DNA of 64,000 nucleotides from Mytilus edulis (Eukaryota), in assembly GCF_963676685.1 (NCBI RefSeq), contig NC_092353.1:35154001-35218000 (forward strand), written 5' to 3'. Positions 10,950 to 64,000 of this stretch are shown piece by piece. A model generated the notes under the pieces. That model had not been told where the DNA came from. It made no database searches and saw nothing but the letters and a program-made list of their open reading frames with translations. Position numbers and translations under genes: made by a program. Position 1 is the stretch's first letter, and every line of letters starts with the position of its first letter.

Positions 10950-11260
10950 GTTCTTAATAATAAAACGTATGTAGTACCCAGCCAATCCCAAGAAACGTCG
11001 AACATCTTCGGGTGATGTAGGTGTTGGCCAAGTCAGGACTTTCACGGTCTTTTCTGGATCTACTCCCACTCCATCTGCTGAAACAATGTGTCCCAGGAAC
11101 TTTACCTTGCGTTGAAAGAACGAACATTTCTTGGGTGCCAACTTCAGGTTCGCCTTTCTGATGCGGTCCACTACCAGTTGCAAGTTGTTGGGATGTTCCT
11201 CATATGTCTTTCCAAAGATAATCACATCATCAATGAACACAATGCATATTCTTAGGTGGT
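10950..11260 (-). mobile_element. Ty3/gypsy LTR retrotransposon RT fragment
   Basis: FIDDVIIFG...LKLAPKKCSF...VKFLGHIVS...DPEK...WPTP...VRRFLGLAGYY are gypsy RT motifs 5-7 and thumb. Truncated on both sides. Confidence 0.9.
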
Positions 11261-11261
11261 A

Positions 11262-11512
11262 ATCAGGTACCAGGATTATAATTTAATACGCCGACGCGCG
11301 TTTCGTCTACATAAACCTCATCAGTGACGCTCAGATCAAAATAGTTATAAAACCAAAAAAATACAAAGTTGAAGAGCATTGAGGACCCAAAATAGTAAAA
11401 AGTTGTGCCAAATACTGTCAAATACGGTAATGCAAAGAAAATCTATAATTATGACTATATCTGTTCAATGGTAATAAGTGCTGACTACTGGTTTGGTGAT
11501 ACCCTGGGGGAA
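11262..11512 (-). mobile_element. Retrozyme-like repeat with degenerate hammerhead (core ~11288-11332)
   Basis: The minus strand reads gagcgtca-CUGAUGA-gguuuauguagac-GAAA-CGCGCGUC-ggcg; stem II is mutated. The body has an internal replacement. Confidence 0.75.
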
Positions 11513-13477: not shown

Positions 13478-15067
13478 ATTATACATTAGTTAAATGATTC
13501 TCAGCAGAATGATTGTGTTTGACAAAATGTATTCAAATAAATCATAAGGTATAACAGTAAAATCCATTTGATTTAAATAGCTTGTATTATGGAACAAGCA
13601 AATCATCTTTTACAATATCTCTGGTATCTAATGCATGAAATTGTTTTTAAGAGATTAATGCGTTATGCTTAGTTTGACTAATTGCTTTGTAGAAAAAAAT
13701 ATGAGACGAGCATAATACGTTTCTATCTTTGTTTGCGTATTTTTTTGTTTCTGTTGTTCCGTTGTCTTCCTCTTATAGTTGATGTGTTTCTTTCGGTTTA
13801 AGTTTGTAACCCGGATATGTTTTTCCTCAATCGAGGTATGAATTTTAAACAGCGATATACTACAATTGCCTTAACTTAAGTGAAAGTCAAATATTTTATT
13901 TCAATTGTTTATTGTTTATAGCATCAACCGCTATTTCCCTAAATAGCAACAAAAAGATGTCAATATTCCCTTAGCCAACCTACTGAACCAGCTTGAAAAA
14001 TAATTTGAAAATTAGTTCTTTTCAATATTATTGAAAAATATAAATACTTATTAAAGATCAAACAGCCATAGTTGATTTAAGGATAATTAAGTTATTATAA
14101 TCAACTAATCAATTCTCTTCATCCAATTTACTCTTGATTAATTTAGGAAAATTATTTAAAATTACACAATCATATTGAAATTGAACAATATATGACATTG
14201 ATCTTCCTACTCAATTACTAGTATACTTAAGGAAGTTGCCTTCTCTTGTTTTTTTTTGAATTTTTGCCAGATATTTGGAGTAGTGGACATCCTTAAAGTC
14301 CTTAAAGCTTAATCTTAAACAATATTTTTTGACGGTTTATGACAGTTTAATTTTCGCTCCCATATTTTGTTTTTGATTTCATTTTTACCAGTACGTAATC
14401 AAAAAATATGTTCAGAATACATGAATGAAACAGGAACTTCCTAAATGAAAAAAAAACTCATGTATAATTAAGTTATCTTATCTAATGAAGATTGTCGGAT
14501 GTTAACAAAACTTGTCTTTTTTTCTTTTTTAGCCATGGCGTTGTCAGTTTATTTTAGATCTATGAGTTTGACTGTCCATCAGGAATCGTTCACCCCTCTT
14601 CAAGGATGGATACACCCTTAAATGACGACTATTGAAACACAGACCAAAACCATCTCTTCATCTCTCCTTTTTCACTTAAAAAGCAGTATTCTAATTAGAA
14701 AGGATAATTAGTTTAACGTACCCAATCACATTAGTAAAATTGCTTATGGCACCACATAATCACTGAATCTTTATATTGACATCTATTATTGGAAATCAAT
14801 AAACAATTATTAAAATGTTAGAACATTTTAAACTTCTTTTGGGGTATATAACTGTCTTAAAATGTTTATTAAAAAGTAGTTTTCTTTCAAATATATTATA
14901 CATTTTACGGTATTTAAATTTTAACAAGCGATCAAACGACGTGATATTCGTAAAATTATATGTTTTAAAACATAGTTGAAACGCTTAATTTGTGTCTGTG
15001 TGTATCATTCTGTGCAATTCAACTTATATTTACCAGTAAATGTGGAACTCTTGGAAGAAAATAAGAA

Positions 15068-16234
15068 ATGAATCGTTTCATTTTCTGTGTCTTGATATTA
15101 CTCCCGTTTCCTTTGCCGAGTTTTGGACAAACTTTAGTTAATGTGACAAAACTATATGATGATCTTTTCAGTAGTTATAGGAAAAATATTATACCTGTGG
15201 ACAATCATTCAGAACCATTAGAAATTTCACTGGCTTTCTATTTACTATCTATCAATTCTTTTAGAGAGATCGAGGAAACGCTCGTTCTAACAGGAGGATT
15301 ATCAGTGGTATGGAAAGACACATCATTATCATGGAATCCTGAAGATTATGGAAATACATATTTATTGGAAGTGGATTCAACTGATATTTGGATACCGTGG
15401 ATCTATCTGATAAATAATGCAAAGAAATTTGAACCTATCGGTTTTGATTCTGCTTTTAGAGTATTTTTAAATAGCAGCGGATTTGTTCAGTATTCCCCGG
15501 GAAGTATTTTAGAAGCAAAATGCAAAACTGATATTTCAAAATTTCCTCTTGATACCCAACCATGCCTCTTAGAATTTATCATTTGGAATGGAGATGCTGG
15601 TACTTACAAATTAATATCGTCGTTTGATGAAGTAAATCTAGATTACTACACAAAAAACTCAAATTGGGAAGTGGTAACTGGAGACACCTATGCACAACTA
15701 CACCCAAGCTATTATTTTAGGTTTTTTATGAGTTTATCATTAAAACGCGAACCAGTGTACTATATAGTAATGATTGTTCTACCGACTGTTTTGTTGTGTT
15801 TGCTCAATCCACTAGTGTTTTTACTTCCGGTAGAATCAGGAGAGCGTATATCCTTAGCAATGACAGTACTTTTGTCGTACGCCATATTTTTAACGCTTGT
15901 TTCAGCATCAATCCCAGCATCCTCTAATCCAATGTGTTTCCTGTTGATTGTTATGATAATTATCATGTTGATGAGTGGATTAACGGTAGTGGCTGTCATT
16001 ATAACAACCAAGCTATACTACGAAGAAGAATATTTCCCTGGAAGGATTATGAAATTTTTCCTGAACAGAAAGACAAAGAATCGGGACGTTACTCCTATGG
16101 GCTGTGAGAAAAAAGAGAAACAACTCTATAATGGAAAAAATGCATCTAATTTTCTCGACAAATTGTTTTTATTTTCCTCATATGCAATTATTGTAATAAT
16201 TCTTGTGGCTTTCTTTCTGTATGTAAATACGTGA
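15068..16234 (+). CDS. Atypical nAChR-like Cys-loop subunit (non-alpha), copy 2
   Basis: 388-aa ORF with Cys-loop CKTDISKFPLDTQPC, GER at the M2 entry and 4 TM segments. No vicinal Cys; intronless CDS. Confidence 0.95.
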   Translation: MNRFIFCVLILLPFPLPSFGQTLVNVTKLYDDLFSSYRKNIIPVDNHSEPLEISLAFYLLSINSFREIEETLVLTGGLSVVWKDTSLSWNPEDYGNTYLLEVDSTDIWIPWIYLINNAKKFEPIGFDSAFRVFLNSSGFVQYSPGSILEAKCKTDISKFPLDTQPCLLEFIIWNGDAGTYKLISSFDEVNLDYYTKNSNWEVVTGDTYAQLHPSYYFRFFMSLSLKREPVYYIVMIVLPTVLLCLLNPLVFLLPVESGERISLAMTVLLSYAIFLTLVSASIPASSNPMCFLLIVMIIIMLMSGLTVVAVIITTKLYYEEEYFPGRIMKFFLNRKTKNRDVTPMGCEKKEKQLYNGKNASNFLDKLFLFSSYAIIVIILVAFFLYVNT

Positions 16235-16249
16235 ACACTTATTAAGACT

Positions 16250-16530
16250 TAATCCAATGTGTTTCTTGTTGATTGGTATGATAACTATCATGTTGATCAG
16301 TGGATTTACGGTAGTGGCTGTCATTATAACAACCAAGTTATACTACAAGGACGACTATTTTCCTGGAAGTATTATGAAATTTTTCCTGTACAGAAAAACA
16401 AGGAATCAGGTCGTTACTCCTATGGATTGTGAGAAAAAAGAAAAACATCTCTTCATGTATCTAATTTTCTCGACAAATTGTTATTATTGTAATAATTATT
16501 GTGACGCTCATTCTATATGTAAATACATAA
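16250..16530 (+). pseudogene. 3' fragment (M3 to C-terminus) of an nAChR-like gene, frameshifted
   Basis: Begins ~15 nt after the copy-2 stop with taatccaatgtgtttc (NPMCF). It has two deletions relative to intact copies (near 16450 and 16480). The homologous stop is at 16528-16530. Confidence 0.9.
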
Positions 16531-17272
16531 ACACTTTTAAAGACTCGATAAATAAACATTTAAAAAATCATCTGCTAATATAGACGGTATATATATAAAG
16601 AAAACAGTAATATTATAAAAAAACATAACTCCGAGTTGAAATTCCTAAAGGAAAGGTTCTCATCAAATCAAAAGCTCAAACACATCAAACAAATCGATAA
16701 CAACTGCCATATTTCTGACTTGGTACAGGCATTTTCCTATGAAGAAAATGGTTGTTTAAACCTGGGTTTATAGCAAGCTAGATCTCTCACTTGTAGGACA
16801 GTCACATCAAATTCCATTATATTGACAACGATGTTAATAGTCACTGACGACTGTATGTTGACCTGGAGATGTCTTTTGGTTCCATAACCATCATCCTTTC
16901 ACTTCTAAAATAGACCCAAAAAAAAAGTGATTTGAAGCTTCTACGTAAAGAAAACGAGACATGAAATTCAAACTGTATAGTGAGACATTTAACTGCCATT
17001 AAAATAATAAAATGAATTGATCCTTTCTGATATCTTTAATCAATTTTATAGTACCAAAAAACAAATAATTGTCGTCGCAATCAATGTAAAAAGTACATAA
17101 AAAACGTTGACTTAAAGAAAAAAAGAAGAAAAGGTGAACTTGACATATTTACTAAATGGAATTTCAAAATATAAAATTTTATGTACTGGTAATTATAAAT
17201 GAGGGACATTTGTTCCGGGACTTATGTTTAGATTTTTTTGGGTCCTGGACCCAACGTAATAAATACTTAAAT

Positions 17273-17683: not shown

Positions 17684-19425
17684 AGGCAACAGTAGTATAC
17701 CGCTGTTCAAAACTCATAAATCTATGGACAAAAAACAAATTGGGGTAACAAACTAAAACTGAGGGAAACGCATTAAATTTTAGAGGAGAACAACGACACA
17801 ACATTAAAATGTAACACACACAGCAACAGAATAAGCATTAGACAAAATCCGATGAGAATAACCAATATAACATCAAAACCAAATACATGAATTTGGGATA
17901 GAAAAGTACCGTGACACGTCTTAAATTAAAGTAATTTGAATTCACACTCAAAAATAGGAGAAAACAAACGACACAACGGAAACACAACGTAAAAATGTTA
18001 CACACACAGAAACGAACTATGATATAAAAATGGCCATTTTCCTGACTTGGTACAGGACATTTTTAAAGAAAAAAAAATGGTGGGTTGAAACTATAGAACA
18101 ATTTATGCTATTGCAAACAGTAAATTTTATCAAATGAATATAAAAGATTTACATGATAAAACTGACGTCTTAATTAATTACAGAAAACAAACCCCGAATA
18201 CATAATACATTGAAGACCAACACAGAAAATAGACACACCCGACATACGAGGTGGTGAAATGGCACAATATTACTCCATGCAGACATGTGAATTTCTGAAA
18301 CAGCACAAATATGACGTCATATTTGAAAAATTATGTCTAAAAAATAAGATAGAAATAGGATTGATTTAAGATTATAATAGAACTAAATACTGATATTACA
18401 TTTAAACACAATGCACATTGCAACACTAATCAATAGCAATATATATATATTATATATGTCTGGTTTGTTTTGAATCTAACTTCAAACATAAAAATCGTAC
18501 AGATTACGTTGAACAAAATCAAAACTAGTAAATGAAAGAGGTGATTAATTTTCTTTACCATAACACATGAATTTAATAGAAAAGACGTCAACCAATTTGA
18601 CAAAAATGGATCAATTGATGAAAATTACAAATATAACATCAAACTAAATACATGAATTTGGGATAGATAAGTACCGTAACACGTCTTATAGTAATGCGAA
18701 TTCACACTCAGCAAAACAGTCACAATCGGGAATAAGTCACGTTCGGTAATTAAAAGATTAGACGACGTAATGACAAACCACAATCTACCATGTGGTAAAA
18801 ATGTCCTTAGCTAGTTTGGTCAAAGACACATCATATGGATCAATTAATTCGTGATGGTGTCCATAAAATTTTAATCTGTCCTTCTCATAACTTTGTTGAA
18901 GCAGTTTCTGTGTAAGGAGCACACTTCTGTATTTGAAGTCCGTATAGAGTGAACATGCACGAGAATAACGTATCAATTGTGATATGTAAACACCATACGA
19001 AGGGGCAGAGGGTATGTTACTGCTGAGAAATGGGAAATTGATAATTGGGAAGTTGAAATCGTCCCGTTTATCATAGATTTTCGTGTGAAGTCGTCTATCT
19101 GCGTCAATATTGAGGAAAAGATCAAGGTATGAAGTAGTCCTTCTATTATCAGTAGAATCCTTAATTTCAAGTTCGCTGGGATATATGAGATATAAGTATT
19201 GGCTGAAATATGGGTTATTCAATGATAGAACATTATCAATATATCGGAAACTAAAATTAAAGAATTTTGCAAGGTGCTTTTTCTTTTTGTCTTTTAGAAG
19301 GTTCTGAATGAATTCTGCTTCATACGAGTACAAAAACAAATCGGCCAGTAGGGGTGCACAATTAGTACCCATTGGAATACCGACTCTCTGTTGAAATATA
19401 AATCCTCCAAACTCAACAAATATAC
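17684..19425 (-). mobile_element. 5'-truncated Penelope-like retroelement (Naiad-type) with RT C-terminal half at 18785-19425
   Basis: FQQRVGIPMGTNCAPLLADLFL...FRYIDN...SYLDL...YDKRDDFNFPIINFPFLSSNIP...ISQLIRYSRAC. The ORF stops after the thumb with no C-terminal GIY-YIG. Catalytic YIDD is mutated to YIDN. The terminal segment recurs at ~12115-12195 and 13730-13875. Confidence 0.85.
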
Positions 19426-21928
19426 CTGATAAACAATATCACATTGTGGTGAATTAGACTTATCACCGAATTTATTCTTGAATGATCAACACAATGGGAG
19501 TAATATCTGCTACATCTTCCGAAGCACTCGATATCACCCCCGTTTTTTTAGTTTTAGTCAATTAGTTTTCTTTCTTGTGCTTAATGAATTGCCTTTTTGT
19601 CATTTTTTAACATTGCATTATCAATTTGGTTTTGATTTTTGAGTTTGGATCTTTCTCCTCTGTTTTACCTGATCAACAAAGAAAAATATTGTACTTAAAT
19701 ATGTTGCAAACTAAAGTTACATTCATCTTGTACCTTGGATGCATATAAAGTAATTTTATTTCATATTTATTATAAGGGATTTTTATAGAATATTGTAGAC
19801 TTTATCTACATTTAAGCCAAAAATTACTGTTAATCTTGTATCTAGTTATTAGTCTTTCTACATGTTCATGTACATATAGAAATTGCGTTACTGTAAACTG
19901 TCTTAGCTTTGATTAGCCTATTGAGAGGTGATTAAGTATCGTATTTTCAAATTTGCTTAATATGCAGTTATATAGAGAAAAATACAAGTTCGCGACCATT
20001 TATATTCACGTTGTTTTACTGCTCGCGAAAGTCGCGAAAGTAAATCCTTTTGGAACATTAGTTTTTTTTACAGTATATAGAATAACAAATGTTATATCCG
20101 GAGAAGACTTTAAAGGAGCTATATCAACAAAATACAAAATAAATAATTATGATCCATTAATGAAAGGTACTTGCAAGTGAACAAATCGACCTAGTTGAAT
20201 CCATATTCATGTAAACGTCACTTTAACCCCTTAGTAAGAGATGGATAACACATGAATCGTGCATGACTAGTTAGTAAAAGGAAATTAATGTCAACATTGG
20301 AAGTAAAAACTTCTGGTAAGATATTTGCTTCACAAAATTCATTGTTATACAGGTAATAACGAGGATTTTTTTTATATATCTTAAACCTATAATATGAAAT
20401 TAAACAGACCTAGAAAAATCAAATTGCACGAGTTCATTACCTATTTACATCTATTATTATGTTTACATCACTTATATAATCATCGGAAGTTTTCGAAGGT
20501 CAACTCGAAAGTAAATTAGATGGCGTCTAGACTTAAATACACACAAAACGATGAGACATATTATCGAGCACATGCCTTGTACCTTGCATATTTTATACTT
20601 TTTATTTTTTGAATAAATGTTTTAATATGTTATAATGCAATATGAGAATTCAACAGCTAGTGCTCTTTAATAATATATATTGAATGCAAGAATACATGAC
20701 CTATCTATTGTACAACTTATGTATGAAATTGAGAATGGAAATGGGAAATGTGTCAAAGAGAAAACAACCCGCATTTAGTAAAGAAGGCCACCAATGGGTC
20801 TTGATCAATTAAAGAGTATATCGAATGACAACTTGGACTGACGATTTTTTTTAAAGAACATAGAGTTCCATGTCAAAACAGAAATGCAATATCATGTCTG
20901 AAAGAAGAAAACAAATAAAATCTACAAACCACAACAGCGCAACATATGACTGAGGACATTCGTAGTTTTCCTTTGTTTGATATGCAAAAATATTGTATCA
21001 ATATAATCAACATTACTTATGTGACAGAAAAAAATTGAGTAATTAACAACATATGATATAGAATTTTATCTTATTCTTACATGGTCAAATTAAAAAAAAA
21101 TATATTTTCCCCATTTTTTGAATTGTTTATTGATGTCATGACTTTCAACATTGTAAAACTTCTAACTTATAAATTAACTTTATTTCCATTGTACTTTCCT
21201 TGATTTTCAATTTACAAGGATTATTTAGCAATTATGATGTTTTGGTGATTTCATGGGTAACAAATGATCTAATGAATAAACACTTGACAATATGTTTCCA
21301 ATGCTACAATTAAAAAAAAATATAAAGACATTTAAAGAGAGAACATAACATAAATCATGAATCAACTGGAACCAACATGAATTTGATAAAGACAGATACT
21401 TAAAAGAATTGGATTTAGCAACCAAGAACGACAATAACACCCGTATAGGGGTTACACCAATACATGACGACTATTGAAACATTGTACACAAAAGTTGAGT
21501 TAATCTCTCGTTTTCCATTAAAAAAGTAACATTCCTATAGAAATGCTAATTAACCTTTCGTGCCCAATCACACTGGTAGAATTGCAATTGGAATCCAATA
21601 ATAAATGAATCTTTATATGAGCACGTATTAATGAAAGCCAATCATCAATTATTACAATGCGAAAACATTTGAAGCTTCTTTCAGTATATAAACGTCATTA
21701 CGTATATAATTGTCTTAAGATATTTAAAAGGCAATGTTCCTTCAAACGAGATATGCATTTTACGGTATTTAAACTTTGAAAAGAGATTAAACAGTGTTAT
21801 ATACGTCAACAATATTATTTGTGAACCATATTTAAACGCTTAATTCATATCTGTGTGTATCAGTCTGTGTAATGCAACTTTTATTTACCATTAAATGTGT
21901 AACTGCTTGAACTTGACGAACATAAGAA

Positions 21929-23095
21929 ATGGCTCGTTTCATATTCTGCTTCATGGTATTACTCCAGTTTCTTTTGCCAAGTTTGGAACAAACCTTAGAA
22001 AATGTGACAAAACTATATGATAATCTTTTCAGTAGTTACAGGAGAAATATCAAACCTGTAAACAATCATTCAGAACCAATAGAAATATCACTGGCTTTCT
22101 ATTTATTATCTATCAATTCTTTTAGAGAGATCGAGGAAACACTCGTTCTAACAGGAGGATTATCAGTGGTATGGACAGACACATCGTTATCATGGAATCC
22201 TGAAGATTATGGAAATACATATTCATTGGAAGTGGATTCTACAGATGTATGGTTACCGTGGGTTTATCTGATAAATAATGCAAAAGAGTTTGAACCTGTT
22301 GGTTTTGATTCTGCTTTTAGAGTATTTATAAATAGCAGCGGATTAGTTCAGTATTCTCCGGGAAGTATTTTAGAAGCAAAATGTCAAACTGATATTTCAA
22401 AATTTCCTCTTGATACCCAACCATGCAAATTGGAATTTATTATTTGGAATGGACATGCTGGTACTTACAAAATAATATCGTCATTTGATGAAGTAAATCT
22501 AGATTACTACACAAAAAACTCAAATTGGGAAGTGGTAAATGGAGACACTTATGCTCAACTAGATCCAAGAGGTTATTATAGGTTTTTTATGAGTCTATCA
22601 TTAAAACGCGAACCAGTGTACTATATAGTAATGATTGTTCTACCGACTGTTCTGTTGTGTTTGCTCAATCCACTAGTGTTTTTACTTCCGGTAGAATCAG
22701 GAGAGCGTATATCCTTAGCGATGACAGTACTTTTATCGTACGCCATATTTTTAACGCTTGTTTCAGCATCAATCCCAGCATCCTCTAATCCAATGTGTTT
22801 CCTGTTGATTGTTATGATAATTATCATGTTGATGAGTGGATTAACGGTAGTGGCTGTCATTATAACAACCAAGCTATACTACGAAGAAGAATATTTCCCT
22901 GGAAGGATTATGAAATTTTTCCTGAACAGGAAGACAAAGAATCAGGACGTTACTCCTATGGGCTGTGAGAAAAAAGAGAAACAACTCTATAATGGAAAAA
23001 ATGCATCTAATTTTCTCGACAAGTTGTTTTTATTTTCCTCATATGCAATTATTGTAATAATTCTTGTGGCTTTCTTTCTGTATGTAAATACGTAA
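21929..23095 (+). CDS. Atypical nAChR-like Cys-loop subunit (non-alpha), copy 3
   Basis: 388-aa ORF with Cys-loop CQTDISKFPLDTQPC. The TM half is nearly identical to copy 2. Confidence 0.95.
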   Translation: MARFIFCFMVLLQFLLPSLEQTLENVTKLYDNLFSSYRRNIKPVNNHSEPIEISLAFYLLSINSFREIEETLVLTGGLSVVWTDTSLSWNPEDYGNTYSLEVDSTDVWLPWVYLINNAKEFEPVGFDSAFRVFINSSGLVQYSPGSILEAKCQTDISKFPLDTQPCKLEFIIWNGHAGTYKIISSFDEVNLDYYTKNSNWEVVNGDTYAQLDPRGYYRFFMSLSLKREPVYYIVMIVLPTVLLCLLNPLVFLLPVESGERISLAMTVLLSYAIFLTLVSASIPASSNPMCFLLIVMIIIMLMSGLTVVAVIITTKLYYEEEYFPGRIMKFFLNRKTKNQDVTPMGCEKKEKQLYNGKNASNFLDKLFLFSSYAIIVIILVAFFLYVNT

Positions 23096-34400: not shown

Positions 34401-34735
34401 ATGTATTAATATATTGATGTAATTTCATTGTCATATAAATGGAATTTCCTGTGTTTAGAAGAAAACATTAAAGGACCGCAATAATTTTTGTATTTGTATG
34501 AGCAGGTGATAATGTAAACTTAAACTAAACTGAGTTGAATTAGACACAAAAGAGTCAACTTTACTTCAAATGCTGAAACTTATATTGTTTCTGTGAGTTT
34601 AAATATCACGTCTTTTCGCAATAAATATAACGTAATTTGAATTTACTGAGAGGCAAACCAGGATATACATTTGGTGAGCAACTGTGGGGGATTTCCAAGT
34701 AAACGTATGTTACTGCTTGCAAAAGTCACCGAAAT

Positions 34736-35902
34736 ATGAATATTATCGTGCTCTGTTTCCTGGTACTTCTCCAGGTGGTAATGCCATGTGTAGGACAAAC
34801 TTTAGAAAATGTGACCAATCTTTATGACGATCTTTTCAGTAATTACAGGAGGAGTATCATACCAATGAACAATCATTCAGAGCCTTTTAAAATTAATATG
34901 GCTTTTTATCTATTGTCAATCAATTCGTTTAGAGAGGTCGAGGAAACGCTCGTTCTTACAGGAGGATTAATTATGGTATGGAAAGACACATCATTATCAT
35001 GGAATACTGTAGATTATGGAAATATAAATTCATTGGATGTGGATTCTAAAGATGTATGGCTACCATATATGTATCTAGTAAACAATGCAAAAGAATTTGA
35101 ACCAATTGGCTTTGATTCTGCTTTTAGAGTAAATATAAATAGCAGCGGTTTTGTCCATTATTCTCCAGGAAGTATTTTAGAAGCAAAATGTCAAACTGAT
35201 ATTTCTAAATTTCCTCTTGATACTCAGCCTTGTCTATTGGATTTTCTTGCATGGGGTGGAGGCGCTACATTTTACAAATTGATATCATATTTCGATGCAG
35301 TTAATTTAGATTTTTACACAAAGGACTCACATTGGGAAGTGGTAACTAGAGACACATATACACACCTAGAACCAAAAGGTTATTATAGTTTTCGTATGAG
35401 CCTATCATTACAACGAAAACCAATGTATTATATAGTAATGATTGTCCTGCCAACGATATTACTGTCCTTAATAAATCCATTAGTGTTTTTACTTCCGGTA
35501 GAATCAGGAGAACGTATATCCTTAGCTATGACAGTACTTTTATCGTACGCTATATTCTTAACGCTTGTTTCTGCATCAATCCCAGCATCCTCTAATCCCA
35601 TGTGTTTCCTGTTGATTGTTATGATAATTATCATGTTGATAAGTGGATTAACGGTAGTGGCTGTCATTATAACAACCAATCTATACTTCCAAGGAGAATA
35701 TTTCCCTGGAAAGATTATGAAATTTTTCCTGTACAGAAAAACAAGGCACCAGGACGTTACTCCTATGGATTGTGAGAAGAAAGAAAAACAACTCTATAAT
35801 GGAAAACATGTATCTGATTTTCTCGACAAGTTGTTTTTATTTTCTTCATATGTAATTATTGTAATAATTCATGTGACGTTCTTTCTGTATGTAAATACGT
35901 AA
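34736..35902 (+). CDS. Atypical nAChR-like Cys-loop subunit (non-alpha), copy 4
   Basis: 388-aa ORF with Cys-loop CQTDISKFPLDTQPC, GER-M2 and 4 TM segments; intronless CDS. Confidence 0.95.
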   Translation: MNIIVLCFLVLLQVVMPCVGQTLENVTNLYDDLFSNYRRSIIPMNNHSEPFKINMAFYLLSINSFREVEETLVLTGGLIMVWKDTSLSWNTVDYGNINSLDVDSKDVWLPYMYLVNNAKEFEPIGFDSAFRVNINSSGFVHYSPGSILEAKCQTDISKFPLDTQPCLLDFLAWGGGATFYKLISYFDAVNLDFYTKDSHWEVVTRDTYTHLEPKGYYSFRMSLSLQRKPMYYIVMIVLPTILLSLINPLVFLLPVESGERISLAMTVLLSYAIFLTLVSASIPASSNPMCFLLIVMIIIMLISGLTVVAVIITTNLYFQGEYFPGKIMKFFLYRKTRHQDVTPMDCEKKEKQLYNGKHVSDFLDKLFLFSSYVIIVIIHVTFFLYVNT

Positions 35903-53849: not shown

Positions 53850-53920
53850 GATTGATTGGGCTATTTAATAAACATCTACCAATAAAATGGCCATTTGTTG
53901 TTTTATCTGTTAGTTCAGTC
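53850..53920 (+). promoter_or_regulatory. Candidate core promoter of the Pro-rich secreted protein gene
   Basis: ATTGG/CCAAT boxes (~53855, ~53879), TATTTAA (~53862) and Inr-like TCAGT (~53915), all upstream of ATG 53988. Confidence 0.3.
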
Positions 53921-53987
53921 CCGTTTGCTTTGTTTCTCAAATGAAAGTTTTGATCTCGTAGGACTAGACAAAGGAAAATATCTAGTG

Positions 53988-54033
53988 ATGGGATCTAGTC
54001 TTATATTAATTTCTTCTTGCTTACTTGGTTGCG
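53988..54033 (+). CDS. Exon 1 (signal peptide) of the Pro/Met-rich secreted repeat protein
   Basis: MGSSLILISSCLLGC-G|gtgagt is a strong phase-1 donor. It joins in frame to the acceptor at 62042 to complete the signal peptide ...CAVIVNG. Confidence 0.65.
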
Positions 54034-54669
54034 GTGAGTATTTTTCTAAAAAAAATGTAAAATTGTTTAACATAATGCATACAGGAATAGAATCATCTAG
54101 AAGAAGATAATTTTGAGGGGATAAGTATAAAAATAAGAAGATGTGGTATTAGATTGCCAATGAGAAAACTCACCTCCAGAGACCAAATGACATATATGTG
54201 AAAAAAAAACCAATTTTTGTTTTGTTTTCTACTGTAGTGCAACGTATTCGTGACTAGGAGATTTAAAAACGATCCTTTAAAGTTTTTTTCTGCTGTTTTT
54301 GACACAGTTGACATGGTTAAACTATGCGCAATTTATACATTTTAAAATTTGAATAGACGATATAATCTATACAGGATTTCTTAAATTTTAACAGATAGAA
54401 ATGAAAAATAATGCATTCGGAACAACACGAATTTTGAAATACAAACTGCAATTACAAAAAAAAAAAGAGAAATATCATTAACATGACAAAGCATTAATGC
54501 AATTTTGGATTATTGTGCGAACAATGTTAAGAATTATATTGAAGTACATATAATAACATTAACGTAATATATACAAAAACATTTTTTATCATTATATATA
54601 TAGAATCTAACCAAAATTTTGTAGACGTTGTGTGACGTTTGTTGTTGTTTTCTTAACGCTACTCAAGTA

Positions 54670-55241
54670 CATGGTAATAAGCTGAGAACATATAGACAGC
54701 TTAAAGAAAATTATAAATTGGAAACCTATTTATTGTTAAATATAGACAGAAAAGTAATAGGGCATTTTGCTAAAATTCGTATTAGTAATAGTGTTCTTAG
54801 AATTGAACAAGGGCGTCACACTAAAACCCCTGTAGAAGAAAGAATTTGTCCTTTGTGCCTCTTATAAGTAGAAGATGAATTTCATTTCACTTTAAAATGT
54901 ACAAAACTAAATATAATTAGAGACCAACTGTTTTCCAAAATTAGTGAAATAGTTCCCTCTTTTTTAAATATGACTAATGAAGCAAGATTTAAATTTTTGT
55001 ATACGTGTGTTGAGACTGATATAATTAGAATTATTGTTAAATTTATAAGCGACATGTACATTTCTAGAAATGCTTTATTAAGCACTAAATAACTTTGTTG
55101 TACCACCTCCTCATATAATGTTTATGAAATTGGTATGATATATATATGTTTGTATGTTTGTGTATAACAAATTTGTATTGTCTTGGGATCAATCCTGTAA
55201 TTTTGGATTTTAAACCAATAAAAATTACTTACTTACTTACT
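54670..55241 (+). mobile_element. 5'-truncated non-LTR retrotransposon (LINE ORF2 C-terminus, probably RTE-X/L2-like), intronic
   Basis: KLRTY...IRISNSVLRIEQGRH...ERICPLC..*VEDEFHFTLKC Cys/His motif, AATAAA plus (TTAC)n tail, and a 10-bp TSD tactcaagta at 54660-69 and 55242-51. Confidence 0.85.
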
Positions 55242-55577
55242 TACTCAAGTAGAAACAAATACATCGTTTAATCAGCGTTTATTGACCCTGTTTGATTTTT
55301 CAATAATGCATGCACATGTTGTTGGTGAACAAACGTTTTACAAACGTAGAAACAAATACATCATTTAATCAAGGTGAAGTTAGAAACAAATATAGCGTTT
55401 GATCTAACAAACGACGAATGACAAACTGTAGACGCATTTTTAGCTCAAAGGCATAGTTTGTCAAAGTTTATGTAAACTTTGCAAACGTATGTTAGAATCA
55501 AATGATCAAAACATGTGCGCGCTTAGCCGTTTGTATCGTTTGCGTTAGAAAGAAATGCATCCTATATGTTAGTTTTT

Positions 55578-56290
55578 AAAATTGAGAAAGGAAATGGGGA
55601 ATATGTCAAAGCGACAACAACCCGACCATACATAGAGCAGACAACAGCCGAAGGCCACTAATGGGTTTACAATGTAGCGAGAAACTCCCGCACCATGAGG
55701 CGTCTTTCATCTGGTCCCTTAAAAATATGTATAATAGTTCAGTGATAATGGACGTCACACTAAACACCGAATTATACACAAGAAACTAAAATTAAAAATC
55801 ATACAAGACTAACAAAAGCCAGAGGCTCCTGACTTTGGACAGGCGCAACATGTTTATGAAATCTCAACCCTTCCCCCATACCTGTAGTCAATGTAGAAAA
55901 GTAAACGCATTAGAATACGCACATTAAAACTCAGTTCAAGAGAAGTCAGAGCCCGATGTCAGAAGACTTAACAAAAGAAAATTAACAAAATGACAATAAT
56001 ACATAAATAACAACAGACTATTAGCATTTAACTGACATGCCAGCTCCAAACCTCAATTTAACTGATTGAAAGATTATGTCTTCATCATATGAATATCAGG
56101 CACAATCCCTCCTGTTAGGGGTTTAGTATCATGCTATCATAAAATATATGAGAACATAACCCGTGTAATGCCAACAACTGTTTTTTTTTTAAATAAATGT
56201 TCCGATGCAAAGACGCTATAAGTAAATCAATATTAAAGCCAAAATATGCAATCTTTCATGACCTGACAACAGTATCGTAACTATATCCCT
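55578..56290 (+). repeat. Dispersed repeat family D, long copy
   Basis: The first ~230 bp align with 51655-51880. Confidence 0.7.
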
Positions 56291-58893
56291 TTTTGCATAT
56301 GTATTAGTGTAAAACCAGCGGAAGTAAACTAGTCATTAATTTTTATGATTTGTTTGTTATAGCAATGATAAATTGAAAAGAAGGAAATAAACTCTTTTAA
56401 ATAATTTTTTTGTAATTTAATTGGAAAACAATCTTTCTTTGAAGGTGAAATGAGTTGTTTATACTAGACATATTAGTCCAGTACGATATAGTTAAGAGGT
56501 CACGAAAGTAATATACTGCAGGGTATGCGTCTATGAAACCATACATCTTCTTTCTGTATCTGGTAGAAACAAACCAAAATAAAACGAAAATGCATTTTTT
56601 TTTTATTGAAACCAACCAGTCAGTTGTTGGAACAAACAATAAACACACGCGCATCTTTGTATCACGGGGACAAAAACAATAAAAATAGAGTAAATCATTA
56701 ACAAAACGAAAATAAACAAGACCAAAACCATTGTCTAAAAAACGACCAAAAAAACCCCATTTCCCAACCAAATATCCAGATTTGTATAATGTAAAAATAT
56801 CCTTATTCGACTGAAACAATCGTTTTATTACACATTGGTCAAAGCAGACGAATAGATAGCATTTGTAGAGTTATTATAAATAGGAGAAATACGTCAGTTA
56901 AGCTATCTCAAAATTTATCAATTGATCACCATGCCCTTTCTAAAAAGTAAAGAACAACGTTACGTTATTGAAGAAGACGAACAATAATTGGAATAATTAA
57001 GAGGTCACCATCAGTCTTTAACATAAAGAGATTCCAAGGTCAGCAACATGCTGGGCGCTATATATTCTTGAACAATAATATTGTTTATCGCTATTTTGTG
57101 AATTTTTCCTTTGATCCTTTTTTTGTTATAATTTTTCATATCATGCTAGTAGCTTTAGATGGAAAATTATCGCTAGAAACTAAGGAAACACGTGGCGTTG
57201 CTAACGAAATTGACATGAAATTGACATCGATCGTCGTCATAGGTAAAATAGCGATAAGCAGATTATCATTGGTCATCTCAACTCGATTGCTCTTCTCGCT
57301 TTTGCCGTCCCGGCTCAAGCAAGAAAATCGATCTCGTTGAGATGATCAACGATAATCTATAATAATTGTGGAACAAAGTTTCAGAATCAATTTAACATGT
57401 AAATAAAACATTTCGCGGTGTCCGGAAAAGTTGGAAAATTGCATGTAAATTTTTTAAAAGTTAGCAAAATAGTTTCCCTCAGTTATTCAACTTTAATGAT
57501 TCCTCGGAGTACAACATGTGTGCCCGGAACACCGAATCAAACATTTTTATCGCTTTATTTTTGAGTCTGAGTTAGTACCATTTTCGTTCTCGCAAGTCTT
57601 GTGACCTTTAAGTTTGAACTTGACCTTGAATTGTTTGCAAAACATTTATTAGAATGATGGACGAGTCAAATCCCCAAACCACATCACACGAAATGATATT
57701 GACACGAAATTTTTAATTGTACATGTACCAATAAAAACAAGGATGTCATCATGTCATTTACATGTATATTTTATGTACAAATTCTAGAAGTTTTATAAAT
57801 AAAATACCAAAAATAACTGTTTTGAATCAAAGATAGAATATTGTAATGAATCTGACAATTGGAAAGATTGTGAATTAATTATTCCTTTGTATTTCGTTGT
57901 TCTCATACACACATTTAATTAAGGTAGTTTTTATCTCTGTCATAAAAAATAAGCGACAATGTCCCAAAATATACAACAATGTCTGGGTGTTCTTTTGCCA
58001 ATACACTAAACAATGAAAATTTGATTTTGTTTAAGAAATAAGTGCCCCTTTTTAAATTTTATTGAGGGTGTTAAAAGGCGTTGTCCGAACTCATTTTGAA
58101 TGAAAATGAATAGCTTCATATTAAAAATTGTGACGATCAATGATTTATCATTTTTACAAACATTCACTGAATTCTTATAATTCTATGTTGACGCGACTGT
58201 CATACAGGTGAGATGTTTGCCTACCTATAAAACCAGGTTAAATCCCCCATTTTCCAAATAAGGAAATGCCTCTACCGAGTAGGAATATGCATTATTCTGG
58301 CGTTGTCAAGGAAAACAAGTGCTTTCATAAATGTTGAATTTGATTTGAAAATAAAACCTAAATTGGAATGACTAGTGATTGTTGTCTTCTTCGCAATTTT
58401 GCGGATTCTAAATTTTTAAACATAAATGCAATGTATCATGAAATCAAATACATCAGACATTTTAGTTACACGTAGGCGACTCATCAAAAACAGTGCGTAT
58501 CTTAAGTATTCGCTTTTAATATTTGTCATAACAATTCTGTAATAATAAATTGTGTTTTATTTCAAAACGCTGAAGAAAATCTTATCATGTAATTTTGAAA
58601 TTGGTCCACACCAGAAAGACTCCAAACCTAAAACTATGGTAGCTAAATACACCTAAAGATGATTGCTGTTTTTTTTCTTCAAAATTTCAAGTCTTTTATT
58701 TTAAAAAAGACGGACATTAAATGATAGTACATAGATTAGTGATCTAAAAAAACAGCAAAAACATGACAAGTCCGTACCCGTGTCCTTGTATTTATAATAT
58801 GAGATATTGAAAATTTACGGGAATTGATTCTATCTAGTTTTTTTTTTATATGTAGGTAAAATAGAAATATTTTTTTCTAAATAAAACCCCAAC

Positions 58894-59104
58894 TACTGTG
58901 GATTCATTGTTTTTCGTGGGCACCAATGATCGTGGATTAAGGAAATAACATGTTAGTGGATTATTTAAATTCGTGAATTAGCTGAAGTCTGCATACAAGC
59001 TTTGGGAAAATTTGTCATTCGTTGAACATTTAATTTCGTGGTTCAACTGTAACCTCGAAATCCACGAAAATTGGTATCGAACGAATAATAATGAATCCAC
59101 AGTA
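58894..59104. mobile_element. Tc1/mariner-type MITE
   Basis: TA-ctgtggattcatt ... aatgaatccacag-TA terminal inverted repeats. Confidence 0.8.
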
Positions 59105-59649
59105 TGATAAATAAGAATTTATGAGAATTATCTAAAATGGCTTTTAAAACGATATGTAATAAAATAAGAAAAAAAGAAGGGGTAAGCCGGCAATAAACCA
59201 CTTTCGAGTTATGTCCTTCAGCGGATAAGTTTGTCAATTTTGAGAGCCATTATGACGTCATTTACCAGATAGAGGGGATCGCTTATAAATATCTTTGTGG
59301 TCTTTATTATACATACCGACCGTGCAAGGGCTGTATAGCCAGTCAAGGTTGTTAAAAACTTCCATTTGTTGTATTATACATGTTAAACTAGAAGTAATAC
59401 TTGTTTCGATACACAATTCCCAATTAATGACAACAGTGTCGATTATTTATTACGATATAAAGAAGTTAATTTGCCGAAGGATTCCGTCTTGCAATACAGC
59501 ATTATATTTCTTCAACCACGCACTTAACATGGGAAGGAAGTGACAATGCCCCTAAACGCACGAATAAAGTTCACTGTTGTTTCAGGGGCACTACGTAGAT
59601 TAAACACGTTTTAACACGTGAAAAAGATAACAAAATGTTTGAAGATTAA

Positions 59650-59936
59650 GGGAGCTACCATTTGATTTTTATGGGGGGGGGGGCTAGGATGAAAAATTTT
59701 GTCCTGCATTTTTTTTTAGTTGTAATCTCTGTCCTGCCTTTTTATTTTTCACTCTATTCGGTCCTGCCTTTTTTTTATTAGTTTATACTGACTTTTTTTA
59801 CCTAAATTGTCATCCTGCCTTTTTTTTTTGCAAAGTGTCTCATCCTGCCTTTTTTTTTTACTCAAAACTCCTGTCCTGCCTATTTTTTTCAAATTTCATC
59901 CTAGCCCCCCCCGATAAAAATCAAATGGTAGCTCCC
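59650..59936. mobile_element. PIF/Harbinger (Tourist-like) MITE
   Basis: ~45-bp TIRs gggagctaccatttgatttttat(g)nctaggatgaaa, TAA on both sides, and internal tcctgcc-poly(T) repeats. Confidence 0.85.
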
Positions 59937-62042
59937 TAAAGAATTTAAAAAATTTAAAGACGAGGAATTAATTTTTCAATTCAATTATCCAATAAGAATA
60001 TCTCTTTGGAACTATCGTTTACGCATTTTCAGCACTGAAATATCTGTATTCACAAATTTCACCGAAAATAATGTTTGGCCGAAAAAAGTTAATCTGTTTT
60101 TGAATATATTGAATACATAAAACAGTTTATAAGAGCTATATGTATATGTACAAATTTTATTTCATTTCAAGTCCGCCTATACACATCTAAATAGACACCT
60201 TCAATTATCAAAACGATTGTTTTTATTCTTTTATATAAAACTGTGTCACTGGGTTGTCAAAACAGTGTTTGTGACATAATTAACATAATGTAGTCACAAC
60301 TCCCTCATGTAAACATACATGTTTATAGCTGAGGACCGTTTGTCGACCTTTGACTTTTAAAGTGTTTGAGATGTTGACCACGTGTTGCTATCGCCGTGAC
60401 GTATGACTAACGTCTCTTCTCCTGAAAATTTATAAATTTCTGGAAAATATTTTCGATATTTTCATGTCTTCGTATCAGTTTCATGTATTAGATTGCATTC
60501 CATCTACTGAGGAATACACACATAGAACGGTTTTGTTAGCCATCTTGTAAGTGTTTGAAAATTGGCACGATATCCAATCATCGGTAATCTCACCACGAAT
60601 TAATTTCGAATCTGCGCCAATGATCCCCAAATGCTACAATGAGGCACTACCAAGGGCAAGTGGCAATTAACCATAGGTCGAAGAATACCAAGGCCTAAAG
60701 AATACAAGGAGGCCACACCAAAGGGACAATCAATCATAGGTGTAAGAACTTCATGGCCAAAACAATAACACGTAGTATATGCAAAGGGAGCAATCAATCA
60801 TAGGTCGAAAAACACCATGGACTAAAACAAAAGACGAATATAAAAACAACAGTACAAAAACACTCCGAACAAAGCCAACAAAATAAGCAAAACAAACGTA
60901 TGCGCACCGGAACAGTCGGCAAGTGGAAAATTAAAGTTTTCAGCAGTGAGTCCTTATTTCTAACAATAGGAATTTCAGTCTTTGTTGAGGGTTTTCTTCT
61001 ATATTTCCCTATCGGCCTTCTAAAAATTAAATGGCAAATGACTGATGTACAATGTTTATTATGTTTATTGTCAGGACATTAACTCCCAACATGGTAAGTG
61101 TCGAGTTAATTGGTTACAACGAGAATACATTGTGATACACTGTGACAAATAGACAGTTCAATGCCATTGTCTGAGGAAATGATTGACACACTTCGCAACA
61201 GGTCAATAGTTATATACAGAAAATAATTTATCTCGCCATGCAAACTTTTAAATTTAATAAATACTTGGGGATGTTGGTGTACTCAATAGAACAATATCGA
61301 AGTATTTTGAATACTAAAAAACCCATTCAAAACAGTTAAAGTGTTAGCAAAAAGTCATACATCACTTCAAATTGAATTTCCAATCTGATTTTTTATGTGT
61401 TACAATCATCACTCATCTGGTTTCCTTTGTTCGATTGAAAGTAACAATCAAATTGAATCATATTTTTTTTCAGTACCTTTGTTTTCTCTGACTTACATAA
61501 GTATTGTTCTTAATCAATTTTATAACAAATTGGAATGTATCGAAATACACTCGATTATATCTTAAGCTAAACAAATTTCTTAAAACCCTTTATATATACT
61601 GATTATATATAAATTTGCTTTTTTTTACAAAAGAAAATTAGCTTTTTTTCATCAATGACATGACATAAGGTTCACAAACAACTAGTATAGACAAAGTACA
61701 CACATCTATAAAATAGTTTTTAAAGTAACAAAAAAACTAACAAAAACAAAACAATTATAACCAGTACAGAGTAGCAAAGGACTTTCTCAGTTTATAAAGG
61801 CTATTAAAGAAATACTTTACCCACTTTACACACTAAATGACATATTCTGCCCTACACTGTTTATTTTAGACGTACAAAAATCTTGATGGCCTTAATTCTC
61901 GATCTTGAAAGTTTTATGTTCACAATAGTGAAATCAACAACTTGAAAAAAATGTTATGAGAGTAAGTATCAAAATTTTAAAGATGGTGTTTGTGAATTTT
62001 GTACTTTTCAAGAATCAAACAGATGTTAATTTTATTTTTCAG

Positions 62043-64000
62043 CTGTCATAGTAAATGGGTTAAGTGGATCAGCGCCTGAAAATGGGCCAAGATATGTGTT
62101 TTCCGGTGGTGCTACATCTCTTAATAAGCCGCAGTCGGCCGGAGTTAAATTTTCTGCTATAAGAGTAAACGACAATAATCAAAGGTTCACTATAAAACAA
62201 GGGAAATCTATAAGACCTAAACCAGTATCAGCGAAATTTTACCAGCCAACCTTTAGACCTGGACCTCCTATGCCAGCATCAAATAGACCTGGACCTCCTA
62301 TGCAAGGATCAATTAGACCTGGACCTCCTATGCCAGCAACAAATAGACCTGGACCTGCTATGCCAGCATTAAATAGACCAAGACCTTCTATGCCAGCATC
62401 AAATAGCCCTGGACCTCATAAGCAAGCAGCAAATAGACCTGGACCTCCTATGCCATCACCTTATAGACCTGGACCTCCTATGCCAGCACCAAATAGACCT
62501 GGACCTCCTATGCTAGAATCAAATAGACCTGGACCCCCCATGCCAGCAAATATGCCTGGATCTCCTATGCCAGCACCAAATAGACCTAGACCTCCTATGC
62601 CACCATCAAATAGACCTGGACCTCCTATACCAGCATCAAATAAACCTGGACCTCCTATGCCAGCACCAAATAGACCTGGACCTCCTATGCCAGCATCAAA
62701 TAGACCTGGACCTCCTATGTCAGCTTCAAATATGCCTAGACCACAACTGGCATCTTCAAATATGCCTGTACCTCCTATTCCAGCCTCAAATAGGCCTCAA
62801 CCCCCTTTGCCAGCTTCTAATATGCCTGGACTACCACTGGCAGCTTCAAATAGTTTTGGACCCTCTCTGCCAGCTTCAAATATGCCCGGACCCCCTCTAC
62901 AAGCTTCAAATAGGCCAGGATCTCCTATACCGGCTCCAACATTTAATACACCGGCTTCAAATAGACGTGGACCCTCTCTACCAGCTTCAAAAAAGCCCGG
63001 ACAACCATTGGCAGCTTCAAATAGACCTGGACTTCCATTGCCAGCATTAAAAAGACCAGGACTTTCTCTACCAGCTTCAAATCAGCCAGGACCGGTAATT
63101 CCTCCATTTGCAGCAAGTCGACCTAGTTTATCAATTATCCCGTATAAACCTTTGACACCTCCAAACGGGGCTTCTACAATGATGCAGAGATCTGAGATGA
63201 CTTTTTCTGGACTAAAACAAGGCAAAGCTGGAGCGACTTTTTCGGGACAATCATTCAATAAACCCAATGTAAGGGCAACCTATTCAAGTAGTAGGGGAAT
63301 AGCTGCAGGCGCAAGAACAGTCGGAAGCGTAGGGCGTCCAATGACAGGTTTTACGCCACTTGTTTCTGCCGTTGGAGGACCAAGTGCATCACCTGGTGCC
63401 ACACAATTAGCCAGAAAATCAACAGGTCCAGTATCAAAAGTACCAGGAATGAACCGTGTTGGACGACCAGCAGTTGGAGCAGTACAAGGGACCAGTGCTG
63501 GAACAAATTCGGGTTCAGCATCTGGTATAGTACGATCTGGCAGACCTGGAGCAGTGCCTGTAGCATCAAATTTTATATATAGGCCAGTACAAGGCAAACC
63601 AATAGGAACCAAACTTGTAAATACACCAAGTTCAAGGGTAACTTTGAAAGGGCTTGCACCATCAGCACCCGTGGGGGGAGCAACACAATCGGCATCTTTG
63701 GGAAGATCAGCACCAATGAGACCTGCGAGAGGACCATTATCTATGGCACCTATTGGAGGACTAGCACCAATGAAACCTACTGGAGGATCAGCACCAATGA
63801 CACCTGTCAGAGGATCAGCACCAATGACACCTGTCGGAGGATCAGCACCAATGACACCTACGGGAGGATCAGCACCAATGACACCTGTCGGAGGATCAGC
63901 ACCAATGACACCTATGGGAGGATCAGCACCAATGACACCTGTCGGAGGATCAGCACCAATGACAGGTATGGGAGGATCATCACCAATGACATCTGTTGGA
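62043..64000 (+). CDS. Large exon of a secreted Pro/Gly/Ser/Ala/Met-rich repetitive protein (3' end beyond window)
   Basis: Polypyrimidine ttttatttttcag acceptor. The frame starting at 62045 is stop-free to the window end (~650 codons). It encodes RPGPPMPASN decapeptide repeats and then GGSAPMTPV nonapeptide repeats. Confidence 0.88.
62255..63110 (+). repeat. Coding 30-bp tandem array (RPGPPMPASN, ~28 units, degenerating 3')
   Basis: aatagacctggacctcctatgccagcatca units read directly. Confidence 0.9.
63701..64000 (+). repeat. Coding 27-bp tandem array (GGSAPMTPV)
   Basis: ggaggatcagcaccaatgacacctgtc units continue to the window end. Confidence 0.9.

Follow-up and report, generated by a model that had tools for sequence, protein, structure and literature searches.

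A spliced gene of Mytilus edulis encoding a predicted secreted protein with a cationic repetitive tail and four Kazal domains: a candidate shell-matrix protein

Introduction

The DNA analyzed here is a 64,000-nucleotide stretch of the Mytilus edulis genome (RefSeq assembly GCF_963676685.1, contig NC_092353.1, referred to as C10, positions 35154001-35218000), called the window throughout. Near its 3' end begins a six-exon gene that extends about 8.8 kb beyond the window and encodes a protein of 1,187 amino acids (aa), in which a long cationic low-complexity tail is followed by an acidic Pro/Glu spacer and by a head of four Kazal domains. In this paper we describe the gene, compare its product with relatives in oyster, scallop and pearl oyster, and weigh four explanations of its role. 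The one towards which we lean, with some reserve, is a secreted shell-matrix protein, probably of the first larval shell. Positions beyond 64,000 are window-extended coordinates, i.e., contig position minus 35154000, and published work is cited by PMC number.

Gene structure and transcription

The structure of the gene (Table 1) and its transcription are both real. The start codon at 53988 is the first in-frame ATG downstream of an in-frame stop 35 codons upstream; a GTGAGT donor follows 54033 and a TTTCAG acceptor precedes 62043. The resulting junction (54033/62043, a skip of 8009 nucleotides with GT..AG ends) is present in contigs from two of four runs compared, X1 and X7, which belong to separate studies; in run X2 exon 2 is covered and no contig crosses this junction. 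The contig runs were classed as RNA by a program's guess and their sample identities are coded; the contigs are taken as transcripts because they carry spliced joints. The predicted exon 6 agrees with the C-termini of two independent public Mytilus models (CAG2187027.1 and CAC5386727.1) and with a further 209 bases of the X7 contig. The frame of exon 2 is open for 1017 codons, the longest open reading frame (ORF) in 200 base shuffles being 240, and this frame together with the spliced contigs rules out a non-coding satellite or an artefact. A preliminary description, made from the letters of the window without database searches, had proposed a hidden spliced gene that runs off the window and whose first exon carries a signal peptide, and had suggested extending it 3' in search of globular domains; the junction found in two studies, the signal peptide predicted from the ATG at 53988 and the four Kazal domains reached by extension bear this out.

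Raw-read run X21 (1315 million letters) has zero depth over exon 2, which, for this single run, fits a restricted expression. The marine metatranscriptome X13 contains 0.23 of the sequence words and was not used as evidence for larvae in the plankton. Within the 5' leader (53894-53987) lies a short out-of-frame upstream ORF (ATG 53941, 6 codons), and the X1 and X7 contigs carry 21-30 extra unplaced 5' bases, possibly a small upstream exon or an allelic difference. A retroelement-like fragment in intron 1, at about 54700-55090, is a by-eye impression from the raw sequence.

Table 1. Coordinates of the gene, of its exons and of the segments of the encoded protein.
Feature	Position	Strand	Remarks
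Window	C10:35154001-35218000		
5' leader, transcribed	from at least 53894	+	RNA-type contig X7 covers 53894-54032, joined to 62042
Coding exon 1	53988..54033	+	codes for residues 1-15, with 1 base left over; contains most of the predicted signal peptide
Intron 1	54034..62042	+	8009 nt, GT..AG; holds dispersed repeats; contigs X1, X7
Exon 2 start	62043..62254	+	residues 16-86: last part of the signal peptide, then the basic N-terminal segment
Decapeptide block	62255..63130	+	consensus RPGPPMPASN, residues 87-378, net +27
Non-repetitive G/S/A/P/V/T/R spacer	63131..63754	+	208 aa, residues 379-586, net +23
Nonapeptide block	63755..64000 in the window, on to 64321	+	GGSAPMTPV, residues 587-775
Basic linker	64322-64510 (window-extended)	+	net +7
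Acidic Glu/Pro/Val block	64511-64948 (window-extended)	+	EVPVAEPKP, residues 839-984
Degenerate Kazal 1, first half	64985-65049 (window-extended)	+	end of exon 2
Exon 2 end	65049 (window-extended)	+	in adjacent DNA beyond the window
Exon 3	66439-66570 (window-extended)	+	junction 2/3 in 4/4 runs
Exon 4	67682-67855 (window-extended)	+	junction 3/4 in 4/4 runs
Exon 5	68951-69106 (window-extended)	+	junction 4/5 in 4/4 runs
Exon 6, coding part with TAA	72727-72775 (window-extended)	+	predicted by script
Four Kazal domains	residues 997-1187	+	30 Cys, net -16; completed by exons 3-6
ATTAAA	72922 (window-extended)	+	

Architecture of the protein

The full protein has a mass of 120 kDa, a pI of 9.6 and 5% Met overall. 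Its first residues (about 1-21) form a predicted signal peptide, with Kyte-Doolittle 9-residue means of 1.4-3.0 for windows starting at residues 1-16, and the motif GSAPENGP (within 62060-62089) comes directly after the predicted cleavage site. A membrane anchor was considered and rejected on hydropathy, the highest 19-residue value after the signal peptide being 0.78; the protein is predicted to be secreted. The basic N-terminal segment (residues 22-86) has one DNA match in the genome. The decapeptide block that follows (292 aa; 33% Pro, 11% Ser, 10% Ala, 2% Lys and a single Tyr) can be split into about 28-29 units that decay towards the 3' end, and Tandem Repeats Finder describes it as an array of period 30 with 22.6 copies (score 755) plus a degenerate tail of 4.4 copies. 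The nonapeptide block (189 aa; P22 G20 M14; net +6) has 21 clear units and three MG dipeptides, and once extended past the window its array has a period of 27 with 23.4 copies. This visible order of basic segment, decapeptides (about 28), spacer and nonapeptides is the one given in the preliminary description, which had also noted few acidic residues, no Cys and little Tyr. That composition holds for the 647 mature residues within the window, which include four acidic residues, no Cys and six Tyr and have a net charge of +60, and fails for the whole protein; the picture of a purely cationic, Cys-free polymer devoid of domains had to be given up, as further downstream lie a 146-aa acidic block with 25 Glu (net -11; in-frame length variants in contigs X7 and X8) and the four Kazal domains with their 30 Cys.

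The protein is thereby polarized in charge. Residues 22-838 are net positive and the last 350 residues net negative, and among 50-residue windows all are neutral or positive up to 871 and all negative beyond. Some 820 aa long, free of Cys and with a net charge of about +72, the cationic tail is presumed from its composition to be disordered. Array length varies in frame between contigs, and variants of the repeat units are mostly non-synonymous (31:6, 50:15 and 7:3), ratios near neutral on which selection for the exact repeat sequence was rejected; because variation is mostly non-synonymous and lengths change in frame, composition rather than the exact decapeptide seems to matter. An in-silico trypsin digest leaves pieces of 62 and 181 residues from the decapeptide block, and peptides suited to detection would arise mainly from residues 22-80, 325-605 and 788-870. 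Since the Arg of the decapeptide precedes Pro, and since public models are truncated, poor detection in proteomes would be partly explained.

The decapeptide of mussel foot protein 1 (mfp-1) is rich in Tyr, as 3,4-dihydroxyphenylalanine (DOPA), and in Lys. Both proteins have a cationic, Pro-rich tandem array of decapeptides and are secreted, by prediction in the present case. mfp-1, however, relies on Tyr/DOPA together with Lys and lacks a Kazal cassette, whereas here Arg and Met dominate; with one Tyr in 292 decapeptide residues, DOPA chemistry is absent. The analogy with mfp-1 drawn in the preliminary description therefore fails on Tyr and Lys content, and the repeats are moreover not conserved in the oyster and scallop orthologues described below. 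We thus consider it improbable that the gene encodes a structural or adhesive protein of byssus or foot gland, an mfp-like coacervating cation with built-in protease protection. Its predicted secretion and strongly cationic decapeptide array would suit such a role, Kazal domains are over-represented in Mytilisepta foot transcripts (PMC5549309), and there are pediveliger-specific 'dipetalogastin-like' oyster genes, under other gene ids (PMC6337334); apart from the lack of DOPA chemistry, the unrelated repeats of the Pacific oyster orthologue and the finding of a likely Pinctada orthologue in shell (PMC6231486) argue the other way.

The nonapeptide composition (P22 G20 M14) brings to mind an elastomeric, Met/Gly/Pro-rich protein of the hinge ligament or periostracum, two structures that whole larval-shell extracts would take in. 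This is a slim chance, given that the oyster and scallop orthologues lack the Met-rich repeats, that there are few Tyr for cross-linking and that MG dipeptides number only three in the 189-aa block. Met-Gly repeats are listed for a Met-rich nacre protein of Pinctada (PMC6231486), and the Met-rich nacre and ligament class, marked by such repeats in the absence of Kazal domains, does not accommodate a protein with three MG in its nonapeptide block, 5% Met overall and four Kazal domains.

Kazal domains

All four exon-level Kazal pieces pass at least one curated Pfam cut-off (Kazal_1/Kazal_2), and the mussel sequence P0002 matches PF00050 with 79.4 bits in four stretches. Domains 2-4 have the six-cysteine pattern with a C2-x7-C3 reactive loop and, from the sequence by the standard rule, the P1 residues Gln, Glu and Asn. 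Domain 1 departs from the pattern, with a C-x5-C loop and with C1 and C5 absent, and the same degenerate pattern is found in the oyster and scallop relatives. An AlphaFold2 model of the C-terminal 351 aa contains four compact domains with a predicted local distance difference test score (pLDDT) of about 90 and an unstructured acidic block (predicted template modelling score 0.30). In this model the small alpha/beta disulfide fold is present, the helix of domain 1 being truncated, and Foldseek matches domains to LDTI (TMt 0.89) and to Galleria silk protease inhibitor 2 (SPI2; TMt 0.84, root-mean-square deviation 0.6). The protein belongs to the Kazal family (MEROPS I1), domains 2-4 being assigned by pattern and predicted fold, and domain 1 is likely non-inhibitory and structural. 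The domain fold and cysteine core are common to the non-classical Kazal inhibitors of invertebrates (LDTI, SPI2, rhodniin and dipetalogastin); unlike these, the mussel protein has an extra Cys-Pro-Cys end to its domains, a low-complexity tail of about 975 aa and a first domain lacking the canonical loop.

Scoring of 150 genomic candidates gave 142 Kazal matches, a lower bound for the genome. Large clusters of Kazal exons on C10 (80.25-80.36, 11.27, 48.5 and 54.1 Mb), C2 (0.89-0.93 Mb), C6 (43.1 and 91.8 Mb) and C13 (64.3 Mb) represent multi-Kazal genes distinct from this one.

An inhibitor cassette on a sticky tail might also serve defense: the cationic, probably O-glycosylatable tail would adhere to mucus or microbial surfaces of gill, mantle or gut while the Kazal head blocks microbial proteases of the subtilisin type. 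We judge this unlikely, with several observations in its favor. P1 residues that vary across orthologues fit Kazal diversification, a silk-protecting inhibitor is among the closest small solved folds, and Pro/Arg-rich tails recall proline-rich antimicrobial peptides; 'dipetalogastin'-labelled contigs, not tied to this gene, respond in mussel haemocytes (PMC7023338). A mucus- or surface-tethered inhibitor sits poorly with one raw-read run devoid of any expression and with a likely Pinctada orthologue in the larval shell proteome (PMC6231486).

Relatives in Mytilus, oyster and scallop

The public Mytilus models found carry only the C-terminal 291-351 aa. The M. edulis model CAG2187027.1 equals the last 351 aa of this protein, with 7 substitutions in 351 aa, and M. 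coruscus CAC5386727.1 is an N-terminally truncated 291-aa model of the corresponding gene; both represent the same gene without its signal peptide and cationic blocks. CAC5386727.1 lacks the part encoded by exon 4, leaving three Kazal domains, and its acidic block includes a short stretch that looks out of frame, oddities that may reflect an error of assembly or prediction or a genuine difference between the species. A search of 1.84 billion representatives gave 3325 hits, and among the best 150, to which we confined ourselves, were routes to the scallop protein XP_060069228.1 (Ylistrum balloti, 'dipetalogastin-like') and the oyster protein K1QLG9 (Magallana gigas, 1083 aa, 'serine protease inhibitor dipetalogastin', an automatic label). 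No full-length annotated relative was found among 112 candidates of 616-2000 aa, whose 14 hits are all generic Kazal proteins with 30-40% identity, K1QLG9 having been hidden in a cluster with a short representative; the ESM Atlas gave no usable hit for P0002 or K1QLG9.

By sequence comparison the mussel protein is orthologous to K1QLG9 and XP_060069228.1, because they have in common the degenerate domain 1, the oyster cassette has its best genomic hit in exon 4, the domains match in register and GSAPENGP is retained in oyster. Of the 173 proteins fetched, five show the degenerate Kazal-1 pattern (two Mytilus records, two from oyster and one from scallop), as does one of 47 Kazal cores from fetched mussel loci, namely that of this gene, the 47 being a subset of the genomic Kazal matches. 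Searched against the mussel genome, the K1QLG9 cassette has 14 matches, the best of them in exon 4 of this gene (E 1e-10) and the next at 8e-7, and the mussel protein and K1QLG9 are reciprocal best among the 173 proteins. Compared in register, mussel and oyster agree at 69% of positions in Kazal 3 and at 62% in Kazal 4, the maxima among 1040 other domains being 62% and 56%. GSAPENGP is identical in K1QLG9, at the matching place near the mature N-terminus, and is not visible in the scallop record, a short 334-aa model.

Like the mussel protein, K1QLG9 has a cationic, Cys-free tail, four colinear Kazal domains of which the first is degenerate, and an acidic head, but its tail is Ser/Lys-rich with repeats of its own, without Pro/Met deca- or nonapeptides, and its P1 residues are different. 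XP_060069228.1 has a Pro/Arg-rich cationic N-terminal part, the degenerate Kazal 1 and three further Kazal domains; it differs in having no signal peptide, no regular repeats and only a weakly acidic head. Outside GSAPENGP the mussel and oyster tails have no significant similarity by BLAST (best E 0.42). The repeats are therefore unrelated, and what the orthologues have in common is a positive tail with no Cys and scarce Tyr joined to an acidic head, with net charges in mussel, oyster and scallop of +61, +78 and +17 for the tail and -16, -19 and -4 for the head. A further protein, P0171, from a contig of the European Nucleotide Archive (1399 nt), is 82% identical over the N-terminal 51 aa and then has other repeats, some built of Pro, Gly and Met and some of T/K/V-rich units about 26 residues long (net +49); it probably represents either a paralogue or the orthologous gene of a different mytilid. 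P0171 had no match in the M. edulis genome in a search that missed even the present gene.

The link to the larval shell

The evidence on location comes from the pearl oyster. In Pinctada fucata, pfu_aug2.0_921.1_04697.t1 (pfu_cdna2.0_079924; hereafter 04697) is a Kazal protein rich in P, V, G, S and A, with a mass of 136 kDa and a pI of 9.5, which was detected by mass spectrometry with three peptides in the D-shape larval shell and is reported absent from nacre and prism (PMC6231486). The 04697 cDNA ends in three Kazal domains (Kazal 2-4 are visible) and has a 15-residue linker/Kazal-3 stretch identical to that of K1QLG9; by eye count, 21/31, 24/32 and 20/34 residues of the Kazal 2, 3 and 4 cores agree with mussel, fractions that equal or exceed the null maxima (0.68, 0.62 and 0.56). 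On this in-register comparison the mussel gene is likely orthologous to 04697. The two proteins are alike in a long P/V/G/S/A-rich low-complexity part, in pI and in a C-terminal Kazal cassette; the visible repeat sequence of 04697 is different, and the mass-spectrometric evidence from shell is that of Pinctada, not of the mussel. The best C. gigas hit of 04697 is CGI_10021720 (51%, E 3e-50), stated to be expressed at larval shell-forming stages (PMC6231486).

Further literature is compatible with this placement at the level of the domain. In M. edulis larvae, contigs with Kazal domains, not tied to this gene, increase while the first shell is being formed (PMC6662379); Kazal or other protease-inhibitor transcripts are associated with first-shell formation, with matrix protection or crystal control as proposed roles, in passages that do not name this gene (PMC6662379, PMC5824581); and Kazal is a shell-associated domain in general (PMC8194122, PMC5854119). 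We infer a location in the larval shell of the mussel from these relationships, and it is likely that the gene encodes the mussel counterpart of the pearl-oyster larval shell protein and not a new glue protein. The preliminary description had envisaged a secreted block-copolymer, elastomeric or coacervating, of shell, ligament, periostracum or byssus; the likely Pinctada orthology makes a shell-matrix role the probable one. The protein is not entirely new, for the C-terminal third was already represented by CAG2187027.1 and CAC5386727.1, and a likely orthologue already figured in a published shell proteome (PMC6231486).

Several points weigh against a shell-matrix role. In the orthology, Kazal 2 is 58% identical between mussel and oyster, below the null maximum of 68%, the 1040 domains of the null set are mostly non-bivalve, and the whole-cassette BLAST margin is thin (oyster 174 bits, an algal protein 169). 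The Pinctada link is an eye comparison of supplement text in which domain 1 and the N-terminal motif lie outside the visible cDNA; the Pinctada gene model lacks a signal peptide and opens with a MACPF domain, probably a fusion artefact. Of 30 MACPF matches not one is close to the mussel gene, and synteny thus gives no support. CGI_10021720, which we infer to be K1QLG9, is not in the C. gigas larval shell proteome according to PMC6231486. The P1 residues Gln, Glu and Asn are not the classical trypsin or chymotrypsin types and vary between orthologues. No mussel motif occurs in the adult shell proteome supplements of PMC4517812 (5 files) and PMC5854119 (1 file), which may lack sequences, and Kazal genes are enriched in mytilid foot and digestive gland too (PMC5549309). 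The seven supplement files of PMC5824581, which may likewise lack sequences, gave no hits. Because Kazal or 'dipetalogastin' genes also turn up in foot, digestive gland, pediveligers and haemocytes (PMC5549309, PMC6337334, PMC7023338), the defensive, byssal and elastomeric explanations stay alive. CGI_10021720 is named in print, in one paper of the searched literature; the mussel peptide strings and accessions are named in no paper of that literature, with subscription papers outside the search.

Proposed mechanism

As a shell-matrix protein, the molecule would be anchored by its cationic tail, which could bind to the acidic proteins and polysaccharides of the anionic organic sheet in the shell field, or condense with them. 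The extended, acidic, Pro-rich spacer would keep the disulfide-locked acidic Kazal head apart from the tail, and Kazal 2-4 would shield newly formed matrix from serine proteases, with binding of Ca2+ or of the mineral surface as a possible further role; domain 1 would be structural.

A bolder proposal, which we offer tentatively, is that the mussel, oyster, pearl-oyster and scallop proteins belong to one unrecognized family, whose members would act as charge-dipole scaffolds in the first larval shell. Their tail, rewritten in each lineage with its net positive charge kept, would be bracketed by a conserved tag at the N-terminus and by a Kazal 1 without inhibitory function, and the molecules might self-assemble, the tail binding the anionic head or acidic matrix, to give the condensed pre-mineral sheet of the shell field. 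Such a family could have been missed by annotation through truncated models and under-sampled by proteomics through Arg-Pro bonds that resist trypsin.

Other features in and near the window

Four ORFs of about 389 aa, similar to one another and apparently without introns (6735-7904 on the minus strand; 15065-16234, 21926-23095 and 34703-35902 on the plus strand), carry Neur_chan_LBD and Neur_chan_memb domains and form a tandem cluster of Cys-loop, nicotinic-receptor-like channel genes, with a partial duplicate of a channel-gene 3' end at 16227-16583. Bivalves have an expansion of nicotinic-type Cys-loop receptors, with which this cluster fits. Reverse-transcriptase-like retroelement fragments were seen by eye at 10890-11282 and 18785-19438 (both minus strand), and transposon-like ORFs also lie 3' of the Kazal gene. 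At about 87620-88000 (window-extended) a 21-nt tandem repeat has a Tyr/Lys-rich YYNRKAP heptapeptide frame of 143 codons, possibly non-coding.

Significance

In the life of bivalves no stage is more sensitive to acidification than that of the first larval shell, a shell in which many matrix proteins are without an assigned function. The protein resembles other low-complexity shell matrix proteins with protease-inhibitor domains, and its orthologue group is small and bivalve; the surprise is limited, since a low-complexity region joined to a protease-inhibitor domain is a known class of shell protein. What is gained is the full-length mussel protein, of which the public models found omit about 70%, and its connection with proteins of oyster, scallop and, likely, pearl oyster, the first two of which had been labelled only automatically as 'dipetalogastin(-like)'. 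With unrelated repeats and a constant charge polarity and terminal anchors, these proteins amount to a natural experiment in low-complexity evolution, and they provide constructs testable for matrix condensation and protease protection.

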